Assembly: GCA_964645555.1 (NCBI GenBank)
Contig: CAZYBP010000002.1
Location: 1-55,281 of the forward strand
Reading direction: 5' to 3'
Origin: an uncultured Gammaproteobacteria bacterium
GTDB lineage: Bacteria > Patescibacteriota > Microgenomatia > Daviesbacterales > UBA10151
Length of the DNA stretch: 55,281 nucleotides
In this document: in pieces, positions 1-27,667 of the stretch
How positions within the stretch are numbered: position 1 is the first letter of the stretch
Layout of the letters: every line of letters starts with the position of its first letter
Notes under the pieces: model-generated
What the model was told of the DNA's origin: nothing
Database searches by the model: none
What the model saw: only the letters and a program-made list of their open reading frames with translations
Made by a program: the position numbers and the translations under genes

Positions 1-55
1 GAACCCTCGACCTTCTCCTTGGGAAGGAGACATTCTACCACTGAACTACCACCGC
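1..55 (-). tRNA. tRNA-Gly (anticodon CCC), 3' part cut off by the window edge
   Basis: Reverse complement of 1-55 reads GCGGTGG-TA-GTTC-AGTGGTA-GAAT-G-TCTCC-TTCCCAA-GGAGA-AGGTC-GAGGG-TTC. This gives the acceptor arm, D arm, anticodon stem-loop with CCC (plus-strand ggg at 21-23), variable loop and the first T-stem strand. The rest lies outside the window. Confidence 0.85.
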
Positions 56-98
56 TTGCGCAATAGGTGATATTTTACCAAATTCATGGTAATCTAGG

Positions 99-839: not shown

Positions 840-861
840 TCCTTCAATCAATTCACAACTT

Positions 862-1923: not shown

Positions 1924-1926
1924 AAC

Positions 1927-3111
1927 ATGACTTTTGTAAGTTTGATAATAACACTGGCTATTTTATGCGGTCAATTAATTAAAATTACCCTTTTACCCCA
2001 AGGGGGATTGATAGTATTGGATTTAACAGTAATTGGACTGGTAATCTTTGGATTAATCAAAGTTAAATTCAATTTAAAAAAACCGCCATTTTTTGTCAAA
2101 GCTGCTTTGCTTTTTATTTTAGTTTGTCTAATATCTATTCTCGTCAGTCCCCTGTCTTTGAATCCGAACCAATATTTAATTAGTATTTCTTATAGTTTAA
2201 GACTCTTATTTTATATCATTTTAGGATGGTTAATTTCAGAAGGAATTTTTCCAAAGTTTAAAGATCAAATTCCAAGTATCATTCATTATTCTGGTTTAAG
2301 TTTAGCTATAGCAGGAATTTTACAATTTATTTTCATCCCTGATTTAAGATTTCTACAAGAGGATCTATGGGATCCACACTATTTTAGGACAGCTTCTACT
2401 TTTTTAGATCCAAATTTTTTGGGTGCATTTCTGGTTTTATCATTACTTACAATTTTTAATACCAAAACAATTTCACCTAAACTTAAAAAAATTTCTTTAC
2501 CTCTAATATTTATAGCCTTATTGACTACTTTCTCCAGAGGCTCATATTTATCTTTTATACTCACCTTTTTAAGCTTCTCTCTATTTAAAAGATCAATTAA
2601 ATTAGTTATTGTCACAATCCTTCTTTTTATCATCTTGTTTACAGGTTTTACTGTTTATCAAAAAGCTGTAGCAGAACCCAGAGGAATAGACAAAGCTAAA
2701 TCCGCAGAGAATAGATTAGGTGCATGGCAGCAAGGCTTAACGCTTTTCCAAAATAATCCTGTTTTTGGAATCGGATTTAATGCATATAAATTTGCTTTAA
2801 AACAAAATAATTTGGCAGATAATCAATTTTTACAAAGTAGGGGAGCAACATCTAATGACTCAAGTTTGCTTCATGTTGCTGCTAACACAGGTATTATTGG
2901 ATTATTGGTGTATCTTTTTTTTCTGGTTTCTCTTTTTTTAACTGGCTGGAAAAACCCAACAAACCCTTGTGGTTTAGTATTAATCTCCGGATTAATAGGA
3001 CTGATTGCTCAAAGCTTTTTTATTAATAACCTATTTTATCCTTTTATCTTTTTGTGGATTATGTTGATTGCTGCCGTTACAACCCCGGTTTCAAAAGGCC
3101 ATAAAAAGTAA
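1927..3111 (+). CDS. O-antigen ligase/polymerase family (Wzy_C-like) membrane protein
   Basis: 394-aa multi-TM ORF with LLTTFSRGSYLSFILTF and NPVFGIGFNAYKF motifs typical of Wzy_C/O-antigen ligase proteins. Confidence 0.65.
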   Translation: MTFVSLIITLAILCGQLIKITLLPQGGLIVLDLTVIGLVIFGLIKVKFNLKKPPFFVKAALLFILVCLISILVSPLSLNPNQYLISISYSLRLLFYIILGWLISEGIFPKFKDQIPSIIHYSGLSLAIAGILQFIFIPDLRFLQEDLWDPHYFRTASTFLDPNFLGAFLVLSLLTIFNTKTISPKLKKISLPLIFIALLTTFSRGSYLSFILTFLSFSLFKRSIKLVIVTILLFIILFTGFTVYQKAVAEPRGIDKAKSAENRLGAWQQGLTLFQNNPVFGIGFNAYKFALKQNNLADNQFLQSRGATSNDSSLLHVAANTGIIGLLVYLFFLVSLFLTGWKNPTNPCGLVLISGLIGLIAQSFFINNLFYPFIFLWIMLIAAVTTPVSKGHKK

Positions 3112-4081
3112 TTTTCTTTTCTCTAATATTTTTAATAATATAATCATCATTTACTACCTTTTTACTTTGGATTTGGGCCCTTTTTTTCAGTAGGGTAGGC
3201 AGGTGGGTAAGAATATACCAATCAGCCCCTATCCCCTGCCAAAAATATCCTTGGGTAATCATCCAAAAAATAGTGTTTATATTAACCAGGATTATTTTTA
3301 ACCAATTGAAGTTTGATAGAAACAAACCCTTAGGAAAATCCTTAATAATCATCTGAGTCATATTCCTAAATTGCCAGTACTCCATCATTGGTTTAATTCT
3401 TGAAGAAGTTGCCTTATGAATATGGTAAATAATTGCCTTAGGCTGATACCAACCCTTGAATCCTTGTAACTGCGCCCGAAAACATAAATCCACATCTTCC
3501 ATATAAGTATTGAAATCTTCATCAAACAGTCCTGCCTTATTAAAGACTTCCCTTTTAAACAAACCTCCTCCCGCTGTCACCATAAATACATAACCCGGTT
3601 TGCTAAATTTTGGTCCATCCTTCTCTCCCATTCCCAAATTATATGCATGACCCACTGCATCAATAATATCCCCTGCAGAATCTATCCTCTCCCTATGGTA
3701 AAAATTACGCACTCTGGCTGCTATAAATCCACAATCCTGATGTTGTTTGGCTGCTGCCACCAGACAACTTAAACAATTCTCCTCTACTTCAGTATCATTA
3801 TTTAATAAAAACAGATATTTGGATTTAGACTCTTTGATGCCAATATTTACTGCCTTTGCAAAACCATAATTTTTATCTAAAGTTATAACTTTAAAATCCG
3901 GAAAGACAGTTGTGACATACTCTACTGAACCATCCATAGAACCGTTATCCACCACAATCACCTCAAAATCCCTAAAGCTCTGTTTAGTTAAAGAAGGCAG
4001 GCATTTTTTTAAAAGCTGTTTACCGTTCCAATTTGGAATAATTATAGAAACAGTATATTTATATTCTGGCTTGGATAACAT
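3077..4081 (-). CDS. GT2 family glycosyltransferase
   Basis: N-terminal VSIIIPNWNGKQLLKKCLPSL...FEVIVVDNGSMDGS and LLNNDTEV (DXD-like), the classic GT-A/GT2 signature. Confidence 0.8.
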   Translation of the reverse strand: MLSKPEYKYTVSIIIPNWNGKQLLKKCLPSLTKQSFRDFEVIVVDNGSMDGSVEYVTTVFPDFKVITLDKNYGFAKAVNIGIKESKSKYLFLLNNDTEVEENCLSCLVAAAKQHQDCGFIAARVRNFYHRERIDSAGDIIDAVGHAYNLGMGEKDGPKFSKPGYVFMVTAGGGLFKREVFNKAGLFDEDFNTYMEDVDLCFRAQLQGFKGWYQPKAIIYHIHKATSSRIKPMMEYWQFRNMTQMIIKDFPKGLFLSNFNWLKIILVNINTIFWMITQGYFWQGIGADWYILTHLPTLLKKRAQIQSKKVVNDDYIIKNIREKKITFYGLLKPGL

Positions 4082-4739
4082 AATGGTAAATAATTAGATT
4101 AGGAAACAATTTAACAAGTCTGGGTTTTAATAAATTAACAAAAATATTTCCTAGAACTGGAACTTTTAATAAACTATATTCAAAAGGTATTTTCACTTCA
4201 GTTGGATAAATATCTTCGACTTTTATCTTACACTGCTCAAGTAACCTCATAAAACTATTATATGTATAAAACCTTAAGTGGGTCTTATCTAAAAGGCCAC
4301 TTTCCTGGTAATCAAATTTACCTCTGAATAAATCAACTCTCATATTCCAGCAAGCAACATTTGGTATGGATATTAATATTTTCCCTTCTTTTTTGAGTTT
4401 ATTTCTTAAAAAAAGCAAAACCGGTTCAGGGTTAGTTAAATGTTCTAAAACATCTGCGCAAATTATAAAATCATATTTTTTCTTTATATTTGCTTGAATA
4501 TTCTTATCCTCTACCGAACCACTAAAAACCTTTCTCGCCAAATTCTTTAAGTTATTAACGTTATTTTTGTCTATCTCAATAACATCAACAACATTGTCAT
4601 ATTTATTAAACTCTCTGGTCATGTACCCTGAGGATGAACCGATTTCTAGAACTTCCCCACCTTGAACTAAGCTTAATATCTTTTTTTGAGCATTAGAAAA
4701 ACCATGTATTTCAACTAACCTTTGGTAGACTGTTTTCAT
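4059..4739 (-). CDS. Class I SAM-dependent methyltransferase
   Basis: Motif I VLEIGSSSGYMT, acidic loop VDVIEID, and FDFIICADVLEHL (Methyltransf_11/23-like). Confidence 0.75.
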   Translation of the reverse strand: MKTVYQRLVEIHGFSNAQKKILSLVQGGEVLEIGSSSGYMTREFNKYDNVVDVIEIDKNNVNNLKNLARKVFSGSVEDKNIQANIKKKYDFIICADVLEHLTNPEPVLLFLRNKLKKEGKILISIPNVACWNMRVDLFRGKFDYQESGLLDKTHLRFYTYNSFMRLLEQCKIKVEDIYPTEVKIPFEYSLLKVPVLGNIFVNLLKPRLVKLFPNLIIYHYVIQARI

Positions 4740-5959
4740 TTTAAAACCTTAATCCTAATCAATTGAAAGAAAATTATAAAAGATAAAATTTCAGATGCAA
4801 CTGTTACCCAAGCTGCAGCATATACACCAAACTTCGGAATAAAAATCAAGTTTAAAATTACATTAAACGATAATGTAATAACTGATAATACTATTACTTG
4901 CTTTAAAAATTTATCTGTTGAAAATAAAACTTGTATTCCGGGAGCATGGATAAAAATAAAAGGCAGTGAAAAAGTTAAAATTCTTAAAACATCAACAGAG
5001 CTACTATAACTTGGTAAAAATATCTTAATGAAGAAGGGTAAAATAAACATATATCCTAAAGCCACCAGAATCCCTATAAAAAGCATAATCTTTAAACTCT
5101 TGAAATAAACTGACTCAACCCTGGATTTATCAATTAAATAAAGTTTGGCTACAACCGGGAAAAGTGCTGTTGATAGGGCAGTTGGTATAAAAATTGCTGC
5201 CTCCAAAAATTTATATGCTGCAGAATATATCCCTGTATCAAAATTGCCCTTTAAATAAGAAAGTAAGATGGTATCTATTCTAAAATAGAGCATGCCCAAT
5301 ATCCCGAGTAATCCATAGGGCAATGACCCTAAGGTAATCTCTCTGATAATTTTAAAATTAATGCTAGAGAGTAAATTAATTTTCTGGGTAAGCAAAACAA
5401 GAATAATTATTAATAAATATCCAAGTTGTCCTAGGATTAAAGCAACAGCCGTACCGGTTGTCCCAAAGCCTGAGGAAACTAAAAAATAACCAATCACTGA
5501 AGTAAAAATGCTTAAAAATACTAAAGACAGGGCGGAAAGTTGTAATCTTTTTAAAGCTATAAATAACCCGTCTAAAGTTAAAGCAACTGCCTGGGGAACA
5601 ACAGCCAAAACCATGAGTAAACTAACACTAACCCTGAATTTATCCGGATCCAGTGCATATAAAATTACTGCAAAAATTCCAAAAAGGCAGCTTGAGACAG
5701 TTAACCTTAAAAAGGTAACATTAAATACTAAAGTGGGAAATCTTAAATGATCTTTAGCTATTTCTCTAACTAAAAATCTGTTAAAACCAAAATCGGAAAT
5801 AGTGGAGATTAAGGAAAAATATGCCAAACCTACACTGTAAAGTCCAAATTCCTCAATTGCTAAATTTCTTGCCAAAAAAATTGTATAGAAAAAACCTATT
5901 GCTCTTGTTATAACTTGGGCCAAAGCCAACCAGGAAGCCTGCCTTAAAATCGGTAGCAT
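4736..5959 (-). CDS. Wzx-like polysaccharide flippase (MOP superfamily)
   Basis: 407-aa ORF with about 12 hydrophobic segments. The N-terminus WLALAQVITRAIGFFYTIFLARNL is typical of polysaccharide biosynthesis/Wzx proteins. It has a 4-nt overlap with the downstream methyltransferase. Confidence 0.7.
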   Translation of the reverse strand: MLPILRQASWLALAQVITRAIGFFYTIFLARNLAIEEFGLYSVGLAYFSLISTISDFGFNRFLVREIAKDHLRFPTLVFNVTFLRLTVSSCLFGIFAVILYALDPDKFRVSVSLLMVLAVVPQAVALTLDGLFIALKRLQLSALSLVFLSIFTSVIGYFLVSSGFGTTGTAVALILGQLGYLLIIILVLLTQKINLLSSINFKIIREITLGSLPYGLLGILGMLYFRIDTILLSYLKGNFDTGIYSAAYKFLEAAIFIPTALSTALFPVVAKLYLIDKSRVESVYFKSLKIMLFIGILVALGYMFILPFFIKIFLPSYSSSVDVLRILTFSLPFIFIHAPGIQVLFSTDKFLKQVIVLSVITLSFNVILNLIFIPKFGVYAAAWVTVASEILSFIIFFQLIRIKVLK

Positions 5960-6038
5960 TTCTAAATTGTACCATCTGTGGAATCAAAATACTCTGCATA
6001 TATAAAAACCCAGATTAAAAAATAATTATCTGTTAGCG

Positions 6039-6067
6039 TTCATAAACAGCCTGAAGTTTAGTATAAT
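6039..6067 (+). promoter_or_regulatory. Candidate sigma70-type promoter (TTCATA-17 nt-TATAAT) for the 6075 gene, geometry implies a leaderless mRNA
   Basis: Perfect TATAAT at 6062-6067 and TTCATA at 6039-6044 with a 17-nt spacer. Only 7 nt (6068-6074) separate the -10 box from the ATG at 6075, and no SD is present. Confidence 0.4.
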
Positions 6068-6074
6068 TTGCAAC

Positions 6075-6800
6075 ATGTTGAACAACTTTTGCGAGAGAGA
6101 GCATACTGCAGAAGAGATCGAACGGATTCGCTGGTTAAAATGCATTGCCGTCCCCAAAGATTATGATATAACTGTAAACGAGAGAAGATCAATCGGTCTT
6201 CATGGGACCAGCATTGAAACAATAATTTTCCTAATTGAAAAAGGCGTTTTACCTGGTTCGCCGTTACCGTCATATAAAGATAAAAGACGAGTACAAAACG
6301 GAGACATTTTCTTTGCAGAATTTCCTGAAGAATTGCCTGAAAAATATCAAAACTCAGAGTATACAAGGTCGGATGAATTACCTGCATATCGTGCATTCTT
6401 TTATGCAGAGGAAACAGCAAGACAACATTATTTACTTACTACCCTAGGTTTACCCTTTTCTGATCAAAGTATTTATAATGCCTCTATGGCACTATCCTTT
6501 TCAGGCGAAGTTGAAGATAAAATTGAGTTAGCTCAGGAAAAATTTGCTCAACCTCTTGAGAGAAATGCCAATGTACCTCGCAGGACATTGCTAGACGTTC
6601 TGGCAAGGTGTGATTCAAGAAAAGGAGTTGTTTTAGGTATACATGAATCGGTACGTAAGCATTATATTGTAGATTTGAGTACTGATGGAGACTTTAGATT
6701 CAACTGTTCGCAGGGTTTGGACATTAAATATCTTACTCTTCTATTACCGTTTGGACGAGTTGAACAAGGATTTTTGAAAAAATTATTTTCCAGATACTGA
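6075..6800 (+). CDS. Orphan hypothetical protein (241 aa), soluble, no family recognised with confidence
   Basis: Long ORF on the strand opposite to all its neighbours, with no TM segment. It contains IGLHGTSIETIIFLIEKGVL and GDIFFAEF motifs (see findings). The overlapping minus-strand ORF 6058-6420 looks like a shadow ORF. Confidence 0.6.
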   Translation: MLNNFCEREHTAEEIERIRWLKCIAVPKDYDITVNERRSIGLHGTSIETIIFLIEKGVLPGSPLPSYKDKRRVQNGDIFFAEFPEELPEKYQNSEYTRSDELPAYRAFFYAEETARQHYLLTTLGLPFSDQSIYNASMALSFSGEVEDKIELAQEKFAQPLERNANVPRRTLLDVLARCDSRKGVVLGIHESVRKHYIVDLSTDGDFRFNCSQGLDIKYLTLLLPFGRVEQGFLKKLFSRY

Positions 6801-6808
6801 TTTTGTAA

Positions 6809-6841
6809 ACCCACACCAGGTGTGTCGTAGCTTGACACATA
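6809..6841. repeat. REP-like 33-nt double-hairpin element, copy 1 (likely bidirectional terminator between convergent genes)
   Basis: acccacaccAggtgtgtcgtagcttgacacata matches 27588-27620 at 32/33 positions. It can form two overlapping hairpins: CACACC/GGTGTG and TGTGTC-gtagctt-GACACA. The T-rich tail tagcttctttt follows. Confidence 0.7.
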
Positions 6842-6852
6842 GCTTCTTTTCA

Positions 6853-7347
6853 TTAAGCTTTTGAATTATCAAAGGTCTGAACTGGACCTTTCCATTTATC
6901 ATTATCTAAAATTACCTCCTGATAATCCCCGCCTGTATACTCGCTTATTACCTTTCTCCAGAAAATCTGTGCTTCCCTATTTTGGTTTGTCTGTGTTACT
7001 TCCCATTTGCCAGGAAACATATCAAAAATTTGTCTTGCAACAGTTTGACCTATACCGCCTCTCCTATACTTTTTCAAAATAAAAAATTCGGCAATAGCAT
7101 TTGCACTGTTTGAAAGATAAGTATGTTTATTTATCAGTACAAATCCCGCTAATTTACCACCTACTTTAATGAAAAATGGGTGTCTGTCTTTTTCCTGCCA
7201 GTAATTATTTAAATATTTATAGCCGTACCTGCGATCTTCATTTAAATCTAAATTACGAAATTCACTAAGATCATATTCATAAAGCTCTAAAAGATTTGCA
7301 AGGATTTGTTTATCTTTTTCCTCAACGGGAATTATCTTAATATCCAT
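6853..7347 (-). CDS. GNAT family N-acetyltransferase
   Basis: 164 aa with the acetyl-CoA binding motif FFILKKYRRGGIGQTVARQIF (Q/R-x-x-G-x-G/A). Confidence 0.8.
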   Translation of the reverse strand: MDIKIIPVEEKDKQILANLLELYEYDLSEFRNLDLNEDRRYGYKYLNNYWQEKDRHPFFIKVGGKLAGFVLINKHTYLSNSANAIAEFFILKKYRRGGIGQTVARQIFDMFPGKWEVTQTNQNREAQIFWRKVISEYTGGDYQEVILDNDKWKGPVQTFDNSKA

Positions 7348-7351
7348 AAGA

Positions 7352-7762
7352 TTATTTTATACCTAAAACATTAAATAGTGATTTTAAAACCCCATCTTTA
7401 TCATAAAGAATTTTTGCTCCGGCTGTAATTACTTTTTTAGTTCCCAGATCAACCGGGTTTGTATTTACCCACTCTGGAGTTGTTATACCGTATTCCACTT
7501 CCAAACCATTTTGGTAAAATACTCTTCTTGCTTGTACGAATTTAAAATCTTCATTCTTTATTTCTCTTATCTCTCCGAAGATTTTCATCCAATCACCATT
7601 GTCTAAATAAGCCTTTGGATCATTTGTGATTATTACTAAATCTATATCTGAATCAGGCTTGGCGGTACCTCTGGCATAAGAACCAACCAATACAACAGCC
7701 AAAATTTCTCTTTGCTTCTTAACCCAGTGTATAAATTCAGTTAAAAATTCTTGTACTTCCAT
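7352..7762 (-). CDS. Minimal nucleotidyltransferase (Pol-beta superfamily, MNT/KNTase-like)
   Basis: 136 aa with the catalytic signature VLVGSYARGTAKPDSDIDLVIIT (G-S-x-x-R-G...D-x-D). Confidence 0.75.
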   Translation of the reverse strand: MEVQEFLTEFIHWVKKQREILAVVLVGSYARGTAKPDSDIDLVIITNDPKAYLDNGDWMKIFGEIREIKNEDFKFVQARRVFYQNGLEVEYGITTPEWVNTNPVDLGTKKVITAGAKILYDKDGVLKSLFNVLGIK

Positions 7763-7763
7763 A

Positions 7764-8597
7764 TTAAAGAGTTGTTATTGGCCTAGATTGTAAAATCCAG
7801 ATTTTGGAATCACTATCTATGGCAAATTCTATATCTTGTGGAGTTTTATAATGTTTCTCTATCTTTATAGCCATCATCGCTAATTCTTTTAATTGCTCAT
7901 CAGATAAAACAGCACTATTTTGTTTTTCCGCTGGCACAGGCACTTCCTTATTTTGTCCTCCATCAAATATCATCATAGTCTCTTGGGTATCAATCTTTCT
8001 TTCCTTAATTTTCAAACTGTTTTTATCTATTAAAAAATTATCCGGAGTAATCAATCCCTGAACTAGCATCTCCCCAAACCCAAAGCCTGCCTCAATCATA
8101 ATCTCATTGGTATCTTTAGTAATTGGGTTTACAGTAAACATGACGCCAGATGACTCACTCTCTATCATTTTTTGTACTACTACTGCCACAAATAATTGAT
8201 CCTCGGATAAATCCTGTCCTGCTGCATAAGATAGAGCTCTTTCAGATTTAATAGAGTTCCAACAGTCTCTTACTTTTTCTATTAAATTCTCTCTATTAAC
8301 ATTTAAATATGTCTCTAACTGCCCTGCCCAAGAAGCTTGTGAGGAATCCTCCGCAATCGCTGATGATCTAACGGCAACCCTCTTTGCATCTAACAAATCA
8401 AAAGCCTTAAAAATTTCTTCTTTAAAATCTATAGGGAGATCCTGGTTAGAAAATTTTTTATGAGCTTGGGCTGTAATTACAAATCCCGAAGGTACTGGAA
8501 TACCAGCTTTAGTCATTTCCCCTAAAGAAGCACCTTTCCCACCTACCTCAACTACATCATTTTTAGAAACTTCACTAAACTTTTTGATGAAATTCAT
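7764..8597 (-). CDS. Stand-alone PPDK_N / ATP-grasp nucleotide-binding module of a PEP-synthase/dikinase-type enzyme
   Basis: 277 aa. VGGKGASLGEMTKAGIPVPSGFVIT at the N-terminus and QDIEFAIDSDSKIWILQSRPITT at the C-terminus delimit a complete PPDK_N (PF01326-like) domain. Confidence 0.8.
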   Translation of the reverse strand: MNFIKKFSEVSKNDVVEVGGKGASLGEMTKAGIPVPSGFVITAQAHKKFSNQDLPIDFKEEIFKAFDLLDAKRVAVRSSAIAEDSSQASWAGQLETYLNVNRENLIEKVRDCWNSIKSERALSYAAGQDLSEDQLFVAVVVQKMIESESSGVMFTVNPITKDTNEIMIEAGFGFGEMLVQGLITPDNFLIDKNSLKIKERKIDTQETMMIFDGGQNKEVPVPAEKQNSAVLSDEQLKELAMMAIKIEKHYKTPQDIEFAIDSDSKIWILQSRPITTL

Positions 8598-8598
8598 T

Positions 8599-9918
8599 TT
8601 ATGAGAGGATTGCTACCTCTCCTCTATCAGCATTTACTTCTACTAAGTCTCCAGTCTTTAAAACCTCTGTGGCATTTTTTGTACCAACAATACAAGGGAT
8701 TCTAAGTTCCCTCGAAATAATTGCTGCATGAGAAGTAATACCACCTAAATTAGTAACAATAGCTGAACATTTTCTAACAGCACTCATAAAATCAGGCGAG
8801 GTCATAAAGGTAACCAATACTTCACCATTTTCTAATTTATAATTTTCGCTGGCGTTTAGAAGTACCCTTACCTTGCCTGTAACTTTTCCTTTAGAAGCAC
8901 AATTTCCTTTAAGGACTTGAGCGTTGTTTGTCTGAGGAGTTAATATTTTTTCCCATTCTCTAGCCTTCTCTCCAATTAAAATTTCCGGTTTTTTTTCATT
9001 TTCCTCCCAAACAACAAAACATTTTTCTCTTCTTTTATTTATAAATTCTTCAGTAATTTTTCCATCTAAAATATCTTTTATCTCTGAAGGGAAGGTTTCT
9101 CTCATGGCAGACAAAGCAATGTTTCCCCTTTCTCCTACTTCTTTTAGCAAAATCTCTAAATAGTGCAAATATACTAAGATATTTCTTTTTCTCTCATCCT
9201 GATATGTTGCAAAATTCTTCAATAAATCTACCAATCTTTTTGACTTTGGATCTAATTGTGCACTTTGAGAATTATCTTTTAAAGCAGTTTCCACCTTTAT
9301 ACTAGAAAGCCTTTTCTCAACATCTTGTTTAGACAATATTTTGGTCAAAGAATAATTATTATCTATCCAAAAATACCTCTTGATGAACTCATCTATGTCT
9401 TTTGAGTTTACTAGATAATTATCTGCTTCCTGAGTATAGGAAAATTTATCAGGTACAACTAAATGGGCTATTTCATCGTCACTTAGCTTAGAGCCCTCTT
9501 TCAGTTCCACCTCTGCTTGCATAGCGAGCGGTTCTTGAATAGCACCAATTCCATAATAATTAATAAAAACATCATGAAGTTTGTTATACAAATCAACCAA
9601 CTGCTCATTTGTCAAATTAGATATATCTACCTGATCAACCTCTTTTTCAACACCTTGCAAAATCTCTAATCTTTTAGCTATTTCCTCAACCATTGCTTGT
9701 TGTTTATTTTCATCTTTATAAATGTTTAAAAGTTTTGCTCCGAGATTATAAAACTCTGTATTTTTTACACACCATGTCACAATCCCATTTTTGAAAATTA
9801 AAATTGTAGTAGGAAAACCATATCCACTAAATTCCTTTAGTGGCTTCATTGAACCTTCGAGAGTGGGATACAGTAAATGTATTGCTGCCTCTCTTTCCCA
9901 TCTAAACCACTCGTCCAT
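8599..9918 (-). CDS. Unknown ~330-aa helical domain fused to a PEP-utiliser swivel phosphohistidine domain
   Basis: C-terminal GKVTGKVRVL...VTFMTSPDFMSAV...VTNLGGITSHAAIISRELRIPCIVG matches the PEP-utilizers mobile domain (PF00391-like). The predicted phospho-His397 codon is at 8728-8730. Confidence 0.75.
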   Translation of the reverse strand: MDEWFRWEREAAIHLLYPTLEGSMKPLKEFSGYGFPTTILIFKNGIVTWCVKNTEFYNLGAKLLNIYKDENKQQAMVEEIAKRLEILQGVEKEVDQVDISNLTNEQLVDLYNKLHDVFINYYGIGAIQEPLAMQAEVELKEGSKLSDDEIAHLVVPDKFSYTQEADNYLVNSKDIDEFIKRYFWIDNNYSLTKILSKQDVEKRLSSIKVETALKDNSQSAQLDPKSKRLVDLLKNFATYQDERKRNILVYLHYLEILLKEVGERGNIALSAMRETFPSEIKDILDGKITEEFINKRREKCFVVWEENEKKPEILIGEKAREWEKILTPQTNNAQVLKGNCASKGKVTGKVRVLLNASENYKLENGEVLVTFMTSPDFMSAVRKCSAIVTNLGGITSHAAIISRELRIPCIVGTKNATEVLKTGDLVEVNADRGEVAILS

Positions 9919-10491
9919 CTACCTAAAAACCTCCTCTGCTTTCAATCCTAATTCCTGCCTTACTTTTTTGATCCTTTCTACATACTCATTAAATATTTCC
10001 GCACTTTTATGAATTCTATAAAATCCTTCAGCACCTTTATATAAAGAACTATCAAATACATCCACATCTTTAACTAATTCTATATAGGGATCATCAGAAT
10101 AAATTTCTTTTTCACTATGATGAAATACTGCCTGAGTAATGTTTTCTATCTCTGTATCACTAAAGTCTCCTACTTCCCTTAAGATTTTTTCTGCAATAGA
10201 AGCACCCAACGGACCATGGTTATTGTATATTCCATTTTCAATAACATATATGTCATGAAGTATCGAGGCCACGCTACTAATATCAACATTGAGGTTTCTC
10301 TTTTGTGCTAATATCCTACCAATTTGCATACATCCTGTAGCATGCATTAACTCAAAAAAAATTGAATCCTCTCTTTCTACATCGGGAACTTTGGAAGCAA
10401 GTATTAACTCCATGACCTTCCTCTCGACTTTTTCAAACCGAGATAAATCCTCGCCTTTATAATGATGAAAATCCTTTAATCTATTATTCAC
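9919..10491 (-). CDS. HD-domain metal-dependent phosphohydrolase
   Basis: 190 aa with H...HD signature (ELMHATGCMQIGRILA ... SVASILHDIYV) and a later HH (AVFHHSEKE). GTG start at 10491, 10 nt after the tRNA-Val 3' end. Confidence 0.75.
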   Translation of the reverse strand: MNNRLKDFHHYKGEDLSRFEKVERKVMELILASKVPDVEREDSIFFELMHATGCMQIGRILAQKRNLNVDISSVASILHDIYVIENGIYNNHGPLGASIAEKILREVGDFSDTEIENITQAVFHHSEKEIYSDDPYIELVKDVDVFDSSLYKGAEGFYRIHKSAEIFNEYVERIKKVRQELGLKAEEVFR

Positions 10492-10501
10492 CTTGGCATT
10501 G

Positions 10502-10573
10502 TGGACGGAGAGGGATTTGAACCCCCGACATCTGCAATGTGAATGCAGCGCTCTACCACTGAGCTATCCGTCC
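10502..10573 (-). tRNA. tRNA-Val (anticodon CAC), no encoded CCA
   Basis: The reverse complement folds as GGACGGA-TA-GCTC-AGTGGTA-GAGC-G-CTGCA-TTCACAT-TGCAG-ATGTC-GGGGG-TTCAAAT-CCCTC-TCCGTCC-A. This is a 72-nt full cloverleaf with a GTTCAAATC T-loop. Confidence 0.9.
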
Positions 10574-10586
10574 ATATCATTCATCC

Positions 10587-10615
10587 ATTCTAGCACCCTA
10601 CCTATTGCATCTCAA
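10587..10615 (-). promoter_or_regulatory. Candidate promoter for tRNA-Val (and the cassette behind it): TTGAGA-17 nt-(TGc)TAGAAT
   Basis: On the minus strand, TTGAGA lies at 10615-10610 and TAGAAT at 10592-10587, with a 17-nt spacer and an extended -10 TG. The -10 box ends 13 nt before the tRNA 5' end. Confidence 0.45.
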
Positions 10616-10634
10616 CTTGATGCTTTGAGATAAT
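10605..10634 (+). promoter_or_regulatory. Candidate promoter for lepB: TTGCAT-18 nt-(TGa)GATAAT
   Basis: TTGCAT at 10605-10610 and GATAAT at 10629-10634, preceded by TG at 10626-10627. Seven nt lie between the -10 box and the GTG at 10642. The -35 box shares one base with the divergent tRNA promoter -35 box. Confidence 0.4.
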
Positions 10635-10641
10635 ATGGGAC

Positions 10642-11232
10642 GTGGATCCGAACAGTCTTTACCCTGGCGCCCCTGAGCAAAAGGGAGTTTTTAGCAATAT
10701 CGGCACTTATTTAATAGATTTTATAGAGACTCTGGTAGTCTTTGGTGCCATTTTTGCCTTAATTTATCTTTTTGTAGCACAATTTCACAAAGTCTCCGGC
10801 AATTCTATGTTGCCTACCATGCATGATGGAGATTATTTGATTACAGAAAAAGTAAGCTACAAATTGAATCAACCTAAAAGGGGAGATATCGTAGTTTTGC
10901 AAAATCCAAAAGATGAATCTCAAGACTTTATTAAAAGAATCATTGCTGTACCTGGAGATACCATCAAAATTGAAAATAATAGGGTATTTGTCAACGGTGG
11001 TACCAAATCAGAAGATTATCTTCCTCCAAATACCGTAACAAGAAGCGGAAACTTTCTACGAGAGGGTGCTAGCGTTACTATGGACTCTAATCAATATTTT
11101 GTAATAGGGGATAACCGTAATCACTCTTCCGATTCCCGGGAATGGGGACCAATTACAAGAGGTGAAATTGTTGGCAAAGCTTTCTTTAGATACTGGCCTC
11201 CACAAAGCGTGGGCCTTTTGATAAATAAGTAA
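10642..11232 (+). CDS. lepB: Signal peptidase I
   Basis: One TM helix followed by the catalytic Ser box SGNSMLPT. Also present are the Lys box DFIKRIIAVPGDTI and GDNRNHSSDSREWG. The GTG start is uncertain, as there is no in-frame ATG upstream of the catalytic Ser. Confidence 0.85.
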   Translation: MDPNSLYPGAPEQKGVFSNIGTYLIDFIETLVVFGAIFALIYLFVAQFHKVSGNSMLPTMHDGDYLITEKVSYKLNQPKRGDIVVLQNPKDESQDFIKRIIAVPGDTIKIENNRVFVNGGTKSEDYLPPNTVTRSGNFLREGASVTMDSNQYFVIGDNRNHSSDSREWGPITRGEIVGKAFFRYWPPQSVGLLINK

Positions 11233-12084
11233 TTACTGCCCGTTTAAGTTAAAATAGCCTACAATTGCTTGACGTATATCTTCTAATACTGGTAAGGTTT
11301 TTTCTGGATCACCCTCAATAGTTAGCTCTACCTTAGCCCTTTTACCAGTTTGTGAACACTTAACTTGGCTTTTGTCAGCTTTTCTGGCAATGGCTTGGCT
11401 TAAATCATTTTGTAATCTATCAATATCCTCAGAAACAATATGCATAGAAGGCACATCCGCACTTTTTTTGGGTCCGATTCCTTGTTGGGATCTAAATCTT
11501 CTGACTAATTCCTCAGTTCCCCTAACAGACAAATTTCTTTTCAAAACCTCTTTGTAGACTGAAATAATCAGATACGGATCTTCTAATGCAGCCAGTGCTC
11601 TGGCATGACCCTCAGAAGTAGCACCTGCCATCAACGCATCTTTTAAAGCATCAGGTAAAGTTAAAAGTCTTATGGTATTAGAAATATATGAAGGGCTTTT
11701 AGAAACTCTTTCTGCTATTTCAGCATTGGTTAAACCAAACTCCTCCATCAATCTTTTATAAGCCTGGGCTCTTTCTAAGGGATTTAAATCAATTCTTTGA
11801 ACATTTTCCACAATAGCCATCTCTAACATGCCTTGTGGACTGGTTTCCCGGATTATAACAGGAACTCTGCCTAAACCTATTAGCTTTGAGGCTCTCCATC
11901 GTCTTTCACCGGCAATAATCTGATAGCCTGCCGGAGTTTTAGCTACTACTATTGGTTCTAAAATTCCGTGGGCCCTAATTGATTCAGCCAATTCTGACAA
12001 TGACTCGGGGCTTATTAAACCACGAGGCTGCAGGGGGTTGGGTTGAAGTAACTCAATTTCTAATTCGTAGATCTGCTCTTCCAT
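11233..12084 (-). CDS. parB: ParB/Spo0J chromosome partitioning protein
   Basis: LQPNPLQPRG and IIAGERRWRASKL ParB boxes plus an HTH region (LTNAEIAERVSKSPSYISN). Its stop codon abuts the lepB stop with zero intergenic bases. Confidence 0.85.
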   Translation of the reverse strand: MEEQIYELEIELLQPNPLQPRGLISPESLSELAESIRAHGILEPIVVAKTPAGYQIIAGERRWRASKLIGLGRVPVIIRETSPQGMLEMAIVENVQRIDLNPLERAQAYKRLMEEFGLTNAEIAERVSKSPSYISNTIRLLTLPDALKDALMAGATSEGHARALAALEDPYLIISVYKEVLKRNLSVRGTEELVRRFRSQQGIGPKKSADVPSMHIVSEDIDRLQNDLSQAIARKADKSQVKCSQTGKRAKVELTIEGDPEKTLPVLEDIRQAIVGYFNLNGQ

Positions 12085-12094
12085 TTAAAATTTA

Positions 12095-12340
12095 TTAAAC
12101 AATATTTATAACGGTTTTCCCTGATTTCTGTTTAAACTCTACTTTACCTTCTGTGACTGCAAAAATTGTATAATCATTTCCCTGTTTAGTCCCAATCCCT
12201 GGGTAAAATTTGTTCCCTTTTTGTCTGATTATGATATTTCCAGAAATTACTTTTCCTCCGCCATAAACTTTCACGCCTAAACGTTTTGAAACAGAATCTC
12301 TATTTTTTCTGGTACTTCCTCCACCTGTTTTATGTGCCAT
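12095..12340 (-). CDS. rpmA: 50S ribosomal protein L27
   Basis: [28 protein letters not shown] is the canonical L27 N-terminus. Confidence 0.95.
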
Positions 12341-12376
12341 AGGCCGCTACTATAATATCCTCCGTGAAAAGAGAAA

Positions 12377-12694
12377 TCAAGGATTACTTTTCACACTGTA
12401 TACTACCTTTGTTTTTTTAGCTCTTGCGCCTGTAACTTTTCTATAATTTGCCTTTGCATGAAATTTCGCTACCCTAATTTTTTTTCCTTTAACAACTTCC
12501 AGGCAATCTAAGGATAATTTTTCCTTCAAAAAAGGTGTGCCTATTTTAACCTGCCCGCCTTCGGAAAGCATTAAAACATTAACTTCAACTTTTTTAGCTG
12601 CTTCTCCCAACAGATCCACCTCTATCGGTTGATTTGGAAAAATCTTATATTGTTTACTGTTAACCTCACAAATTGCAAAATCAAACATGGTCAT
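12377..12694 (-). CDS. rplU: 50S ribosomal protein L21
   Basis: 105 aa with SKQYKI...V.V and KVRVAKFHAKANYRK-type L21 sequence, immediately upstream of rpmA as in most bacteria. Confidence 0.9.
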   Translation of the reverse strand: MTMFDFAICEVNSKQYKIFPNQPIEVDLLGEAAKKVEVNVLMLSEGGQVKIGTPFLKEKLSLDCLEVVKGKKIRVAKFHAKANYRKVTGARAKKTKVVYSVKSNP

Positions 12695-12721
12695 GATTTT
12701 ACCACAGAGAATAACATTTTT

Positions 12722-13762
12722 CTACATCTTTGCTTTGGAGATCAATCCTAGACAAATAAAAGTTACAATCAGGGAGCTTCCTCCGTAAGAAATCAAAGGT
12801 AAAGTAATCCCGGTAATAGGTAATATTCCTATATTCATGCCGATATTGACAAAAATTTGGAAAATTAACATAGAAAATACTCCTACCGCTAAAAGATAAT
12901 TAAACCTATCATCAGATTTATTAGCTGATACTAAACAAACAGTAAGTAGATATAAATAAAGTAACAGGATAATCGATGAACCCAAAAAGCCTAATTCCTC
13001 GGCAGTTGAGGCAAAGATAAAATCCGTTCTAAACTCAGGCAAAAATTGCAGCCTGGACTGAGTTCCCCTGCCTAATCCCCTACCTACTAGCTGTCCGGAT
13101 CCAACAGCGATAGTTGATTGGATGACATTATATCCTCTACCTAAAGGGTCGGCTTCCGGTGTCAGGAACCCAACAATCCTCTGTTTTTGGTAATCATGTA
13201 AAAATAACCAGCTTGAAGGAATTAAAACCAGGCTTATGAGCAATACAATAATCAGCTTTCTTAAAGAAATACGGGCAGCAAAAAGCACACCTGCCCAAAT
13301 TGCCAACACAGTTAATGATGAACCCAGATCTGGTTGCTTGAAGATCAGAAACACTACCGGTAAAACCCAGAGTAAACTTTTTAATATATTGCCCCAAGTT
13401 GCCTCATTTCTAATCCAGAAAGATGATAACAGCAAAATTAAAGCCGGCTTAGCAAACTCTGAAGGCTGAATATTAAAAAACCCCAAAGGTATCCATCTGA
13501 CCGAACCTCTGGTTTCCATACCCACTATTAATACCACCACTAGTAGTATCAGTGTCAGAATATATAAAGGTTTTACTAACCTGGTTAATGAATCTAAATC
13601 TAGTTGAGAAAGAAATAGGAAAAATATAAATCCTACTATTGCATAAATAAATTGCTGTAAAGCTAATTCTTTAGATGAGGAATAAATTACTAAAATCCCA
13701 ATAGAAACCAGTAGTAATACAGGTATGGTAATTGACCAGTTAAGATATTTTAATAGCTTCAT
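12722..13762 (-). CDS. rodA: SEDS family peptidoglycan glycosyltransferase (RodA-like)
   Basis: 346 aa, about 10 TM, with QPSEFAKP, PEFRTDFIFA and LPITGITLPLISYGGSS motifs of FtsW/RodA/SpoVE. It is called rodA only because a second SEDS gene sits inside the dcw cluster. Confidence 0.7.
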   Translation of the reverse strand: MKLLKYLNWSITIPVLLLVSIGILVIYSSSKELALQQFIYAIVGFIFFLFLSQLDLDSLTRLVKPLYILTLILLVVVLIVGMETRGSVRWIPLGFFNIQPSEFAKPALILLLSSFWIRNEATWGNILKSLLWVLPVVFLIFKQPDLGSSLTVLAIWAGVLFAARISLRKLIIVLLISLVLIPSSWLFLHDYQKQRIVGFLTPEADPLGRGYNVIQSTIAVGSGQLVGRGLGRGTQSRLQFLPEFRTDFIFASTAEELGFLGSSIILLLYLYLLTVCLVSANKSDDRFNYLLAVGVFSMLIFQIFVNIGMNIGILPITGITLPLISYGGSSLIVTFICLGLISKAKM

Positions 13763-16645
13763 CTAAGCTTTAGTAATTTGCAGACTATCCCCTTTTGAAA
13801 TGGAAATTGAGGCGGTATTTTTCAAGATCAACTCCTCAAAATGCTTTGGCCAGTTTGGCGAAATGACTTTAGTTTTATCCGCCAATGTTAAGTTATTTTC
13901 TTTACGCAGTTGTTGAATTTGCCTGATTAAATCTCTCGCCTCTCCCTCTTGCTGTAATAGTGGAGTAATATTTGTATCCAAGCTAACCTCAGGTTCGGTT
14001 TTTGTAGCCACTGAGTACTCAATCTTTTTAACATTGAGCTCCATAGTTAATACTTTCTCCAAATCTTCCTTTAATTGATTTGGTAGTTTATATTGCAAAG
14101 ATGCCAATGGTTGCCTTAGTTTAATCCCAGCCTCTTTTCTTTGAGCATGACCCACCTCGGCAATTTTGCGTACCAAGTCCATATTTTTTATTAATTGATC
14201 ATCAATTAGGCTCTTGTCACCTAACGGATAATCCTCCAAATGTACACTTACTTTTTCCGTTAAATTCTTAAATATTTCCTCAGCAATAAAAGGAGTAAAA
14301 GGAGCAAGTAACTTAGCTAAATTCACTAAAACTTGATACATCACCGATAAACTGGTGTTTCTATCTAAAAAATCAGACCCTAGTCCGACTCTATCCCGGG
14401 ATCTTCTGATATACCAGGTAGAAAAATCAGCTACCACAAACTCCTCTATAGCCCGGCTTGTTGTCATCGCATCGAATTTTTCTAAGCTGCTATTTATCAA
14501 CACTGTCAATTTGTGCAATTTAGCCAAAATCCATTTGTCTAAAACCTGTAATTCTCCTCTTTCAAGTTCATCTGTCCAATCAACCAGGGAAGCATAATCA
14601 ATAAAGTATTTATAACTGTTCCATAAAATCAAATAAAACCTTCTTCTAATTTCATCTGTTACTTTATAACCGAAATTTAAATTATATTCAGGATTTTGAG
14701 TCACATAAAGCCATCTCATGACATCAACACCAATCTTATCTGCAGCCTCATTGAATTCAATTGCATTACCCTTGGACTTGTGCATTTCCTCACCTTTTTC
14801 ATCTACTACATTGGCAAATCCCAGTAAATTTTTGAAAGGGTTCTCATTTCGCAAAGCTGTACTCATTGCAATCAGTGAATAAAACCAGTTTTTAAATTGT
14901 CCGGGGAAACCTTCTGTCACAAAATCTGCCGGAAACCAACCCTCCGGCATAGTGGAAAAAGGTACAATTCCAGCATCCAACCAGGGATTACCCACATCTG
15001 GAATTCTGGAAGCTACTTCTTCACACTTAGAACACTTAATTTTTATCTCATCGACCCAAGGCCTGTGTGGAGAATTACTCTCAAAGTTTTCCCAACCCTC
15101 AACAGCTTTTTCTTTCAGTTCTTCCTGACTACCAATCACCTCAAAATTACCGCATTTTTTGCATTCCCAAATAGGTAGAGCCAAACCCCAGTACCTTTTT
15201 TTGGAAATTAACCAATCATGCATATTTTTCAGCCAATCCAGTTCCCGATCCAGCCCCCACTCCGGCATCCAATGGATCTTTTTGGCTACTTCCATCATTT
15301 GTTCCCGGTAAGTTTTTCCAGATAAATCCGGTTTATCCATCGCGATATACCATTCATCTACCACTCTCCAAACTAATTCTGTTTTACACCTCCAACAAGT
15401 AGGATATCTGTGGGTATAATTTTTAGTAGTAAGCAAAAACTTTCCACTTTCATGATTTTTTAAGTAATCAATGATTATTTGAGGGTCTGTCTTAGCGTTT
15501 TTACCACTAAATTCACCAAAGTTATCTAAATAACTTGCTTCTTCATCAATTAGCTCGACAACAGGTAAACCTAACTTTTTACCCAGTTGAAAATCTTCAG
15601 TACCTGCACCTGGCGCAACATGTACCATACCTGTTCCTTCCTCGCTGCTCACCGGCAAAATCTGAGGATCACCTGCTACAACTCTATGTTTATAATCTCC
15701 TAAAGCCTTTTTAACTCTATCCTGTTGATCAAATGGCCCCTCGTACTCCCAACCAACTAACCCACTCCCCTTCTTAGTATCTATTACTTGCTGTCCTTTT
15801 TCTAAAACTCCATCTTGAGTTAATCTGTCGCAAGCTTTTTGCAGCACCCAAACCGAACCATTTGCCGTTGGATAATTTACATACTCTTCATCTTCGTTAA
15901 CTGCAATTGCCACATTACCCGGGATAGTCCAGGGAGTAGTTGTCCAGGCTAGTAAATACTCATTTTCTCTATCTTTAATAGGCAATTTGAAATAAACTGA
16001 TTCATGAGTTAATTGCCTATACTCTTCTGTCAAAATCTCATGCTGGGAAATTGCTGTACCGCATCTAGGGCACCAAGGCACACTGTCATGGCCTTTATAT
16101 AACCAGCCTTTTTCATTTACTATCTTAATAAAATTCCAAATAGAATAATTATTCTTGTCAGAAGATGTATGGTAAGAATTATCCCAATCCATAAAGTAAC
16201 CCAGGCGTTTTGATTGTTCTGTTTGAACTGCGGAATATTTTTTGACCCTGTCTTTACAAAGGTTAATAAACTTCTCCAAACTTTTGAATTTATCCCCCGG
16301 AACTAAATTTTCAATATCCTTTTTATTTTTTAGACCCAGTTCTTTTTCAACTTCCACCTCTACCCAAAGGCCTTGTTCATCAAAACCATTTTGGAATCTT
16401 TGTTTATACCCGCGCATATTGAAAAATCTTTGCCAAAGATCTTTATAAGTCCTGCCCCAGGCATGATGAACACCCATTGGGTTATTGGCAGTGATTGGGC
16501 CATCTAAAAAAGAAAATTTATTGTCTGAGGATTCATTTCTTTTTAAATATTTCTCAACAATCCCCTCTTTGTACCAATAGTCTAATAACTCTTTTTCAAG
16601 AACTGGAAAATCAACTTGTGATAAAACTGGTTTAAACTTTGCCAT
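13763..16645 (-). CDS. ileS: Isoleucyl-tRNA synthetase
   Basis: 960 aa with a HIGH-type motif (MGVHHAWG), a KMSKS-type motif (EEMHKSKGN), Cys clusters CPRCGTA / CWRCKTE / CKKCGN, and a CP1 editing region. Confidence 0.9.
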   Translation of the reverse strand: MAKFKPVLSQVDFPVLEKELLDYWYKEGIVEKYLKRNESSDNKFSFLDGPITANNPMGVHHAWGRTYKDLWQRFFNMRGYKQRFQNGFDEQGLWVEVEVEKELGLKNKKDIENLVPGDKFKSLEKFINLCKDRVKKYSAVQTEQSKRLGYFMDWDNSYHTSSDKNNYSIWNFIKIVNEKGWLYKGHDSVPWCPRCGTAISQHEILTEEYRQLTHESVYFKLPIKDRENEYLLAWTTTPWTIPGNVAIAVNEDEEYVNYPTANGSVWVLQKACDRLTQDGVLEKGQQVIDTKKGSGLVGWEYEGPFDQQDRVKKALGDYKHRVVAGDPQILPVSSEEGTGMVHVAPGAGTEDFQLGKKLGLPVVELIDEEASYLDNFGEFSGKNAKTDPQIIIDYLKNHESGKFLLTTKNYTHRYPTCWRCKTELVWRVVDEWYIAMDKPDLSGKTYREQMMEVAKKIHWMPEWGLDRELDWLKNMHDWLISKKRYWGLALPIWECKKCGNFEVIGSQEELKEKAVEGWENFESNSPHRPWVDEIKIKCSKCEEVASRIPDVGNPWLDAGIVPFSTMPEGWFPADFVTEGFPGQFKNWFYSLIAMSTALRNENPFKNLLGFANVVDEKGEEMHKSKGNAIEFNEAADKIGVDVMRWLYVTQNPEYNLNFGYKVTDEIRRRFYLILWNSYKYFIDYASLVDWTDELERGELQVLDKWILAKLHKLTVLINSSLEKFDAMTTSRAIEEFVVADFSTWYIRRSRDRVGLGSDFLDRNTSLSVMYQVLVNLAKLLAPFTPFIAEEIFKNLTEKVSVHLEDYPLGDKSLIDDQLIKNMDLVRKIAEVGHAQRKEAGIKLRQPLASLQYKLPNQLKEDLEKVLTMELNVKKIEYSVATKTEPEVSLDTNITPLLQQEGEARDLIRQIQQLRKENNLTLADKTKVISPNWPKHFEELILKNTASISISKGDSLQITKA

Positions 16646-27555: not shown

Positions 27556-27667
27556 TGAAGCTAATTATATCAGAACACCCACACAACACCCACACCGGGT
27601 GTGTCGTAGCTTGACACATAAGGAAACTATTGTGCAAATTCTAACCCCAGGGGTTAACTAGCTTCAA
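27555..27667. repeat. 113-bp structured intergenic element bounded by 12-bp imperfect inverted repeats (MITE/REP-cluster-like or murE leader)
   Basis: ttgaagctaatt (27555-27566) pairs with aactagcttcaa (27656-27667) at 11/12 positions as an inverted repeat. Inside are the 33-nt REP-like motif and a perfect hairpin TAACCCC-a-GGGGTTA (27642-27656). The left arm starts at the first base of the murE ATG. Confidence 0.6.
27588..27620. repeat. REP-like 33-nt double-hairpin element, copy 2
   Basis: acccacaccGggtgtgtcgtagcttgacacata matches 6809-6841 at 32/33 positions, in the same orientation on the plus strand. Confidence 0.7.

Follow-up and report, generated by a model that had tools for sequence, protein, structure and literature searches.

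In a Daviesbacteria-like bacterium of the candidate phyla radiation (CPR), a tRNA-Val gene is followed, all on the minus strand, by five genes separated by gaps of 0-4 nt. They encode an HD-domain phosphohydrolase, a protein ending in a phosphoenolpyruvate (PEP)-utiliser swivel domain (SWV), a stand-alone ATP-grasp protein (ATPG), a short nucleotidyltransferase of the Pol-beta fold (NTase) and an acetyltransferase of the GNAT family. This block (6853-10573) belongs to a stretch of 55,281 nucleotides, positions 1-55,281, which we call the window and whose genes are taken from a six-frame list of open reading frames (ORFs). An earlier note on the same DNA had described the block as a single tRNA-led cassette. 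We find that conservation does not embrace all five genes: what is conserved is the HD hydrolase together with a two-component dikinase of the rifampin phosphotransferase (RPH) type, and the NTase and the GNAT are species-specific neighbours that stand outside it. The explanation that we prefer, with a probability of about 0.6, is a conserved three-gene module, HD hydrolase plus two-component dikinase, accompanied by two unrelated accessory genes whose presence in the same transcription unit reflects nothing more than the tight gene packing of this genome. As part of that explanation, NTase and GNAT would be independent small-molecule-modifying genes acquired in this species; for neither should membership of the same system be taken for granted.

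As to its parts, the block had been described accurately. The ORF list, ARAGORN and Rfam place the tRNA and the five minus-strand genes exactly where the note had put them, with the same spacing, Pfam upholds its five domain assignments, and its remark that this composition matches no described system still stands. What is lost is the unity of the whole: the order HD-SWV-ATPG-NTase-GNAT is found in 0 of 164 related loci, and it recurs only in a strain of 99.4-99.9 % DNA identity. Co-conservation, on which the note had proposed to judge its cassette, is strong for HD, SWV and ATPG and does not extend to NTase and GNAT; because the five genes are not co-conserved, the cassette falls by the note's own measure.

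Conservation of the hydrolase and dikinase genes

Gene neighbourhoods were explored from three starting points: SWV, the HD protein and NTase/GNAT. From the side of SWV, with one genome per species, 84 loci were collected and all their ORFs screened by phmmer against the five proteins of the window; from the side of HD, an alignment of that protein retrieved 80 metagenome loci, which brings the related loci to 164 (L001-L164). Homologues of SWV number more than 1100, most of them from Patescibacteria, and in relatives ATPG lies directly downstream of SWV. The order HD>SWV>ATPG is seen at 73 % SWV identity, HD>SWVx3>ATPG at 67 % and SWV>ATPG at 50 %, with different flanks each time. The HD family is narrow (360 proteins, 64-79 % identical among the 120 matches listed), and in 64 of the 80 HD loci a dikinase gene, split, reordered or fused, stands within 250 nt of it: HD>SWV (30 loci), HD>fused ATPG-SWV (10), HD>ATPG (8), ATPG>HD>SWV (4), SWV>HD>SWV (3) and a few other architectures. 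Contig ends limit 10 of the 16 loci that have no nearby dikinase, and at least one apparent exception, L106, carries a divergent SWV (hhalign 99 %). The fused ATPG-SWV proteins of 643-760 aa that HD-linked relatives encode next to HD, and the SWV-ATPG fusion of strain L256 described below, are Rosetta-stone evidence that SWV and ATPG act together.

The two remaining genes behave otherwise. The 84 SWV loci gave no GNAT match and one weak NTase match by phmmer, and the 80 HD loci no homologue of the NTase, of the GNAT or of the orphan ORF that the block faces. Both NTase and GNAT are already absent from the nearest relative outside the species, a Daviesbacteria metagenome-assembled genome (MAG) of 79 % identity (L006), where HD>SWV is followed by two small unrelated ORFs and then by ATPG, with MetK upstream of the module, an acylphosphatase downstream and no tRNA-Val. 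The two ORFs inserted there between SWV and ATPG, of 154 and 85 aa (L006:9345-10102), may form a small pair, mobile or toxin-antitoxin-like. Nor is the tRNA a leader of the module in general: none of L001, L003, L005, L006 and L029 has a tRNA-Val beside it, and the linkage is present only in the 99 % identical twin.

That twin, Daviesbacteria GCA_016187055.1 (L256), is the only other genome in which the complete layout recurs, tRNA-Val and orphan ORF included; it belongs to the same species, since its DNA is 99.4-99.9 % identical to window 1-15378. In L256 a 31-bp deletion (window 8596-8626 against L256:6740-6760) eliminates the stop codon of SWV with the 9 codons before it, as well as the ATG of ATPG, thus joining the two genes in frame into a product of 707 aa with the order substrate domain, swivel, ATP-grasp. 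The deletion also takes away the last beta-strand of the swivel model, and the fusion could be a natural variant or an assembly artefact.

When NTase is followed through its own relatives (48-64 % identity), it is found in eight unrelated contexts, none beside a GNAT or a dikinase: after VanW in three lineages, after CN_hydrolase, between AAA_18/AAA_33 kinases, or next to DinB_2. A two-gene NTase-GNAT module was considered and rejected, as the eight contexts have no GNAT and the 168-aa neighbour in L253 is not one. In L165, L170 and L254 the NTase follows VanW and faces a convergent protein of 209-253 aa; the one from L254, which alone of the three was scanned, gives a near-threshold match to HEPN_Cthe2314 (E 9e-6). 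In L165, APH and Aminoglyc_resit/NTP_transf_5 genes lie 2-3 kb from the NTase relative. The protein itself shares with ANT(6) and MNT proteins the Pol-beta fold and its G-S-x(n)-D-x-D motif (GSYARGTAKPDSDIDL), and resembles their N-terminal half (PF04439, E 1.3e-10). All its NCBIfam matches are far under the cut-offs: against ANT(6), the 136 aa cover positions 5-133 of 279-284, leaving out the C-terminal half, with 38.7 bits against a cut-off of 450 (AadS); against the MntA antitoxin of the type VII MNT-HEPN toxin-antitoxin system, the score is 36.6 bits against 60, and the neighbours in the window are ATPG and GNAT, with no adjacent HEPN. GNAT, whose best match in the PDB is PH1933 (1wwz, E 8.5e-8), belongs to a broad family of 3433 cluster representatives, and its fusion partners (other GNATs, DUF402, His_Phos_1, DinB_2, cupin, AAA_33) are unrelated to the other four genes. 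Because relatives of NTase and GNAT accompany APH, AAA_33 kinases, DinB_2, glyoxalase and VanW, a role of the detoxification type would be plausible for both.

The predicted dikinase and its hydrolase

The AlphaFold2 model of SWV (mean per-residue confidence, pLDDT, 90.7; predicted template modelling score, pTM, 0.88) has a largely helical domain of 330 residues followed by the swivel. Its six best Foldseek matches in the PDB are all RPH-Lm (5FBS/5FBT/5FBU/5HV1; E 4e-13 to 4e-10), and no other solved structure resembles SWV over more than the swivel, to which the remaining matches are confined. Sequence profiles agree: a profile of 65 SWV homologues aligns positions 212-448 to RPH-Lm 631-866 (E 1.6e-30) and is aligned to PpsA, PPDK and Enzyme I over the swivel only, and the single sequence places residues 212-438 on RPH-Lm 641-866 (E 3.7e-20). 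The swivel motif T389-N-L-G-G-I-T-S-H397 has T389, G392, G393 and H397 invariant among the 65 homologues, in which D241 and K244 are likewise invariant and R243 is at least 90 % conserved. In RPH, the second phosphotransfer cannot proceed without R666 and E667, and K670 belongs to the same network (PMC4844700). The alignment sets Y239-Q240-D241-E242-R243-K244 of the window on Y665-R666-E667-Y-P-K670 of RPH, so that Q240 faces R666 and the conserved arginine is offset by +3; we infer that R243 would be the equivalent of R666. ATPG carries the lysine motif GGKG, and among PDB sequences it comes nearest to archaeal PpsA 8a8e (E 8e-71) and to the ATP-grasp of RPH (E ~1e-45).

The pair has what is expected of a two-component dikinase: the ATP-grasp (PPDK_N) forms a subunit by itself, the other subunit ends in a swivel with the motif T/S-xx-GG-xxx-H and contains a substrate domain like the rifampin-binding one with its phosphotransfer residues (the arginine by presumed equivalence), and there is no PEP/pyruvate TIM barrel, as judged by PpsA C-terminal queries on the ORFs of the window and a Pfam scan of the five proteins. 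Equivalog models place it in neither of the established families. Against RPH (NF041857/NF000283), SWV scores 80.4 and ATPG 224.6 bits for a cut-off of 999, with a split and permuted architecture; against PpsA (TIGR01418 / NF005057), SWV scores 121-127 and ATPG 288-300 bits for cut-offs of 598-740. From sequence and model, SWV and ATPG are predicted to be a two-component small-molecule dikinase of the RPH / PpsAB / CreHI / HpeHI kind, with the corresponding chemistry. The note's opinion that the dikinase is split, and of the rifampin phosphotransferase type as opposed to PpsA, is borne out by the RPH-like N-terminal domain and by the lack of a TIM barrel in the window. It is worth emphasizing that the two genes should not be annotated as 'PEP synthase'.

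Comparison with characterised enzymes helps in locating this pair. RPH is a single chain of 867 aa in the order ATP-grasp, rifampin-binding domain, swivel. It shares with the window proteins a homologous ATP-grasp, the catalytic histidine and the conserved acidic, arginine and lysine residues of phosphotransfer, whereas the window enzyme is made by two genes with the ATP-grasp last, identity is 15-19 %, and nothing points to rifamycin as a substrate. PpsA and PPDK are closest in sequence for ATP-grasp and swivel (8a8e, E 8e-71 and 2.7e-26); they differ in that the window enzyme is split, has no PEP/pyruvate TIM barrel and carries another pre-swivel domain. HpeHI, CreHI, AcvAB and PpsAB are established split homologues of RPH, each with a substrate and swivel subunit and an ATP-grasp subunit, and HpeH alone is able to transfer phosphate between substrates (PMC12167813; bioRxiv 10.1101/2022.04.28.489975). 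The window pair is like them in its division of labour between a substrate and swivel-His subunit, here encoded first, and a separate ATP-grasp subunit; it is like them too in the T/S-x-x-G-G-x-x-x-H motif and in the chemistry to be expected, the conversion of ATP to AMP and inorganic phosphate (Pi). It differs in size, the swivel subunit having 439 aa against ~71 kDa for HpeH, and in setting, with no carboxylase or aromatic-catabolism genes near the module.

To our knowledge, two-component dikinases of the RPH type have so far come from the catabolism of aromatic compounds in metabolically rich bacteria, and the present host is a Daviesbacteria-like CPR bacterium with minimal metabolism. In the plant alpha-glucan, water dikinases (GWD/PWD), the substrate-binding region is followed by the His domain and a C-terminal nucleotide-binding domain; this is the gene order of the window and of the L256 fusion, a likeness of domain order, and no carbohydrate-binding module was detected.

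We can therefore picture the reaction as follows, the domains and residues being those described here and the chemistry that of characterised homologues. ATPG would bind ATP, and His397 of the SWV swivel would attack its beta-phosphate, giving AMP and a pyrophospho-His whose gamma-phosphate would be hydrolysed and released as Pi. The phospho-His swivel would then swing back onto the N-terminal helical domain in the same chain, where the D241/R243/K244 site (E667/R666/K670 in RPH) would position the phosphate for transfer to an acceptor hydroxyl, so that the predicted net reaction is ATP + X-OH + H2O -> AMP + Pi + X-O-P. The HD protein would most likely hydrolyse the phosphorylated product or a downstream intermediate, in the manner of AcvF for AcvAB. 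Three small soluble proteins with a predicted His397-dependent conversion of ATP to AMP and Pi make a testable target.

What we propose for the hydrolase comes from its company. AcvAB is encoded with a HAD-fold phosphatase, AcvF (bioRxiv 10.1101/2022.04.28.489975), and a presumed phosphoesterase is encoded alongside the dikinase here as well, albeit with the HD and not the HAD fold. Since HD almost always adjoins the dikinase, and does so in several gene orders, it is probably the matching phosphoesterase of the module. Its structure is less telling: the model is confident (pLDDT 93.7), a search of PDB sequences with HD gave no match, and Foldseek returned only generic small HD hydrolases (2pq7, YpgQ, BH1327, Ddi2, SP1746, YqeK; template modelling score, TM, 0.43-0.58, E >= 7e-3), the best being 2pq7 and YpgQ (TM ~0.55-0.58). 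The public gene call starts at an internal methionine (164 aa), and the N-termini of homologues favour the 190-aa form from the GTG at 10491. The tail thus added (window 10414-10491) carries a motif HHxKG...E...R, with H10, K12, G13, E20 and R24 at least 95 % conserved in 65 sequences and a pLDDT of 55-83, and may be an interaction or regulatory segment. At L134:8517-10064 and L137:2586-4013, HD stands without an adjacent dikinase among purine-biosynthesis genes (a SAICAR synthetase / formyltransferase fusion, adenylosuccinate lyase), a context that hints faintly at a role of the family connected with nucleotides.

Competing explanations

Several facts sit uneasily with a three-gene module of this kind. 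Outside the swivel the identity between SWV and RPH is no more than ~15-19 %, and the comparison with the phenolic dikinases HpeH, CreH and PpsA (Thauera) draws on their published descriptions. The nearest structural neighbours of HD are, with weak matches (E >= 7e-3), nucleotide pyrophosphohydrolases such as YpgQ, and the target of HD may be a nucleotide instead of the dikinase product. A bare pair of kinase and phosphatase would be a futile cycle, and no third conserved gene that might explain the pairing was found beside the module: the largest flanking cluster reaches 8 of 87 loci, with a longest member, that of L106, which proved to be the divergent SWV. Finally, in this species NTase and GNAT probably lie on the transcript of the module, no terminator having been found between them, and a local functional link is possible.

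One rival view, the resistance reading of the earlier note, is that the five genes work jointly here as an operon for inactivation of antibiotics or xenobiotics, by phosphorylation, nucleotidylylation and acetylation, with HD reversing or processing the product. The single strand, the gaps of 0-4 nt without a terminator, the RPH-like dikinase and the likeness of NTase to the N-terminal half of ANT(6) all go in that direction; so do the relatives' neighbours and fusions, by which NTase and GNAT keep company with small-molecule-modifying enzymes (APH, Aminoglyc_resit, VanW, glyoxalase, DinB_2 and AAA_33 kinase genes beside the former, DinB_2 and AAA_33 fused to the latter). Yet co-conservation does not go beyond the 99 % identical strain, spacing is uninformative in this genome, the NCBIfam resistance models stay far under their cut-offs (AadS 38.7 against 450 bits, RPH 80 against 999) and NTase, matching profile positions 5-133 of 279, does not have the C-terminal half of ANT(6), which leaves such an operon improbable. 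We hold it to be slightly more improbable still that the dikinase phosphorylates a macromolecule, be it an envelope glycan or lipid-linked precursor, as GWD does, or a protein, for example HD at its HHxKG tail. In the window and in L001 the module lies next to envelope-glycan genes, and in L003 next to FemAB / LytR_cpsA_psr genes; the SWV>ATPG order and the in-frame fusion of L256 reproduce the order of GWD; and the residues of the HD tail are at least 95 % conserved despite a pLDDT of 55-83. However, L005, L006 and most HD loci have no glycan genes, the N-terminal domain is RPH-like and not a carbohydrate-binding module, all characterised relatives with this domain use small molecules (PMC12167813, PMC4844700), and HD-linked fusions mostly have the order of RPH, ATPG then SWV.

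The combination of HD, NTase and kinase had also suggested to the earlier note a module of conflict, defence or nucleotide signalling. For this one may cite weak and generic matches of NTase in PADLOC to PDC-S09 and CBASS-type cyclase models (E 2e-9 to 7e-3) and a weak NCBIfam match to the MntA antitoxin (36.6 bits for a cut-off of 60); HD, SWV, ATPG and GNAT have no match in PADLOC-DB v2, no system is matched as a set, NTase stands elsewhere apart from the other four genes, viral contigs hold matches to the swivel only, and the five genes, among which there is no mobile-element gene, stay within ~1-2 standard deviations (SD) of the window in GC and third-position GC (GC3). Such a function is very unlikely. 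That the swivel family might be phage-borne was likewise rejected, the scan of viral contigs with the SWV alignment having given swivel-only matches, mostly in giant-virus MAGs. An alternative close to one that the note itself had raised against its cassette, namely that SWV and ATPG are fragments of a housekeeping PpsA or PPDK with a TIM-barrel partner elsewhere, accounts for the fact that ATP-grasp and swivel score best against PpsA models and structures. It has hardly any probability left: queries with the PpsA C-terminal TIM barrel gave 0 matches in the 55-kb window against 21 in a positive control, so that the reading is effectively refuted within the window, the 330-residue pre-swivel region is helical and RPH-like and not of the PpsA arrangement, the equivalog scores are all far under the cut-offs, and the split form is kept in hundreds of relatives.

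Arrays in other lineages and layout of the locus

Elsewhere in CPR and DPANN, SWV is found in tandem arrays (L008, L009, L012, L013, L017, L025, L026, L036, L064), with 8 copies each at a Taylorbacteria and a Woesearchaeota locus, 8-9 in Nealsonbacteria and 7 in Iainarchaeum, the largest having 10 paralogues on one contig of 16.7 kb. The arrays usually contain exactly one stand-alone ATPG, and never two; giant single ORFs of 1154-2019 aa (Table 1) similarly have a single ATP-grasp, at the N-terminus, and two to four swivel modules, four being reached in polypeptides of ~2000 aa. Among 132 arrayed paralogues, H397 is kept in 130, R296 in 118, R243 in 98, K244 in 87 and D241 in 76, and within arrays the N-terminal domains are 16-23 % identical to each other and the swivels 49-59 %. 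This fits one ATP-grasp charging many acceptor-specific swivel modules. It is conceivable, and we put it forward only tentatively, that the module of the window is the single-copy form of a large CPR/DPANN system in which one ATP-grasp charger serves many diversified substrate-domain/swivel-His modules. If this were true, it would allow the combinatorial phosphorylation of many acceptors, such as host-derived metabolites, xenobiotics or envelope components, in genomes of ~1 Mb.

Distant CPR arrays do not have the HD family of the window. Interspersed in distant CPR/DPANN arrays are a different HD family, which escapes detection by the HD profile of the window, His_Phos_1 proteins and a protein of the metallo-beta-lactamase (MBL) fold, and this variety of folds suggests that unrelated enzymes have taken the place of the hydrolase partner. 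Most simply read, the module would bring its own phosphoesterase, a role filled by non-homologous enzymes in different lineages. We found no description of swivel-protein arrays in CPR or DPANN, or of an HD-linked dikinase, in open-access papers and bioRxiv. That a compact, HD-coupled dikinase is conserved in Microgenomates, and expanded into arrays elsewhere in CPR and DPANN, suggests that its chemistry matters for an episymbiotic lifestyle, where its role could be scavenging, detoxification or surface modification.

Table 1. Coordinates of the features of the locus (positions of the window) and of related genes in other loci (prefixed by the locus).
Feature	Position	Strand	Basis or remark
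Candidate sigma-70-like promoter, TTGAGA-17-TAGAAT with TG	10587..10615	-	consensus match alone; just upstream of tRNA-Val
tRNA-Val(CAC)	10501..10573	-	ARAGORN; Rfam RF00005, 73.6 bits; 9 nt upstream of HD start
HD phosphohydrolase, 190 aa, GTG start	9919..10491	-	PF01966, E 7e-8
SWV, predicted dikinase component 1, 439 aa: helical RPH-like substrate-binding domain and swivel	8599..9918	-	PF00391, aa 363-433, E 3e-24
ATPG, predicted dikinase component 2, 277 aa, stand-alone ATP-grasp / PPDK_N	7764..8597	-	PF01326, E 9e-88
NTase, short stand-alone Pol-beta fold, 136 aa	7352..7762	-	PF01909 / PF18765 / PF04439
GNAT acetyltransferase, 164 aa	6853..7347	-	PF00583, E 1.6e-8
Palindromic element, ~34 nt, with hairpin 6820-6840 inside	6809..6842	+	second copy 27588-27621
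Orphan ORF, 241 aa, convergent to the block	6075-6800	+	ORF list
Giant ATP-grasp/swivel fusions	L042:2649-8708, L063:6225-12209, L058:2736-6935
Phosphoesterases embedded in arrays	L017:3318-3923, L030:2702-3304, L019:6409-7029; L036:282-1346, L045:8971-9927; L012:6395-7027

The close packing of the five genes carries no message of its own: spacing of 4 nt or less is found in 63 % of the 41 same-strand neighbour pairs of the window (median 0), and 0-4 nt is uninformative because tight packing is the norm in this genome. A single transcript from tRNA-Val through GNAT is plausible, given a promoter-like site upstream of the tRNA and, in a scan of the region, no terminator-like site between tRNA-Val and the HD gene or between NTase/GNAT and the genes upstream; sites resembling that promoter are no more numerous in the region than in shuffled sequence. 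Nor is there any clear sign of recent transfer in composition, GC and GC3 of the five genes being slightly under the mean of the window. A scan of the region with Rfam gave the tRNA alone, an antisense match to 'Plastid-ycf2' under the gathering score being an artefact.

According to the annotation of L256, the block stands, as the earlier note had seen, between an envelope-glycan locus (Polysacc_synt flippase, methyltransferase, GT2, Wzy_C, mannosyltransferase) and the genes for LepB, ParB, L27, L21, FtsW and IleRS. The gene that it faces deserves the name of orphan which it had been given: it has no match in Pfam, NCBIfam or PADLOC, forms a singleton cluster in a collection of 15 billion proteins, and is present elsewhere only in L256. 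Between the two lies a hairpin with an 8-bp stem and then a run of T, which has the look of a terminator for the orphan ORF, convergent to the block. The term 'REP-like' (after repetitive extragenic palindromic sequences) was a fair one, as the 21-nt core is repeated exactly at 27599-27619, where 0 copies are expected by chance; with its consensus ACCCACACC[A/G]GGTGTGTCGTAGCTTGACACATA and two copies in the window, the element looks like a small REP-like intergenic repeat or a terminator. Further out, at L256:15293-16495, beyond what corresponds to the left edge of the window, a tRNA-Gly(ccc) and a large serine recombinase (Resolvase/Recombinase/Zn_ribbon_recom) may mark the edge of an integrated element beside the glycan locus.

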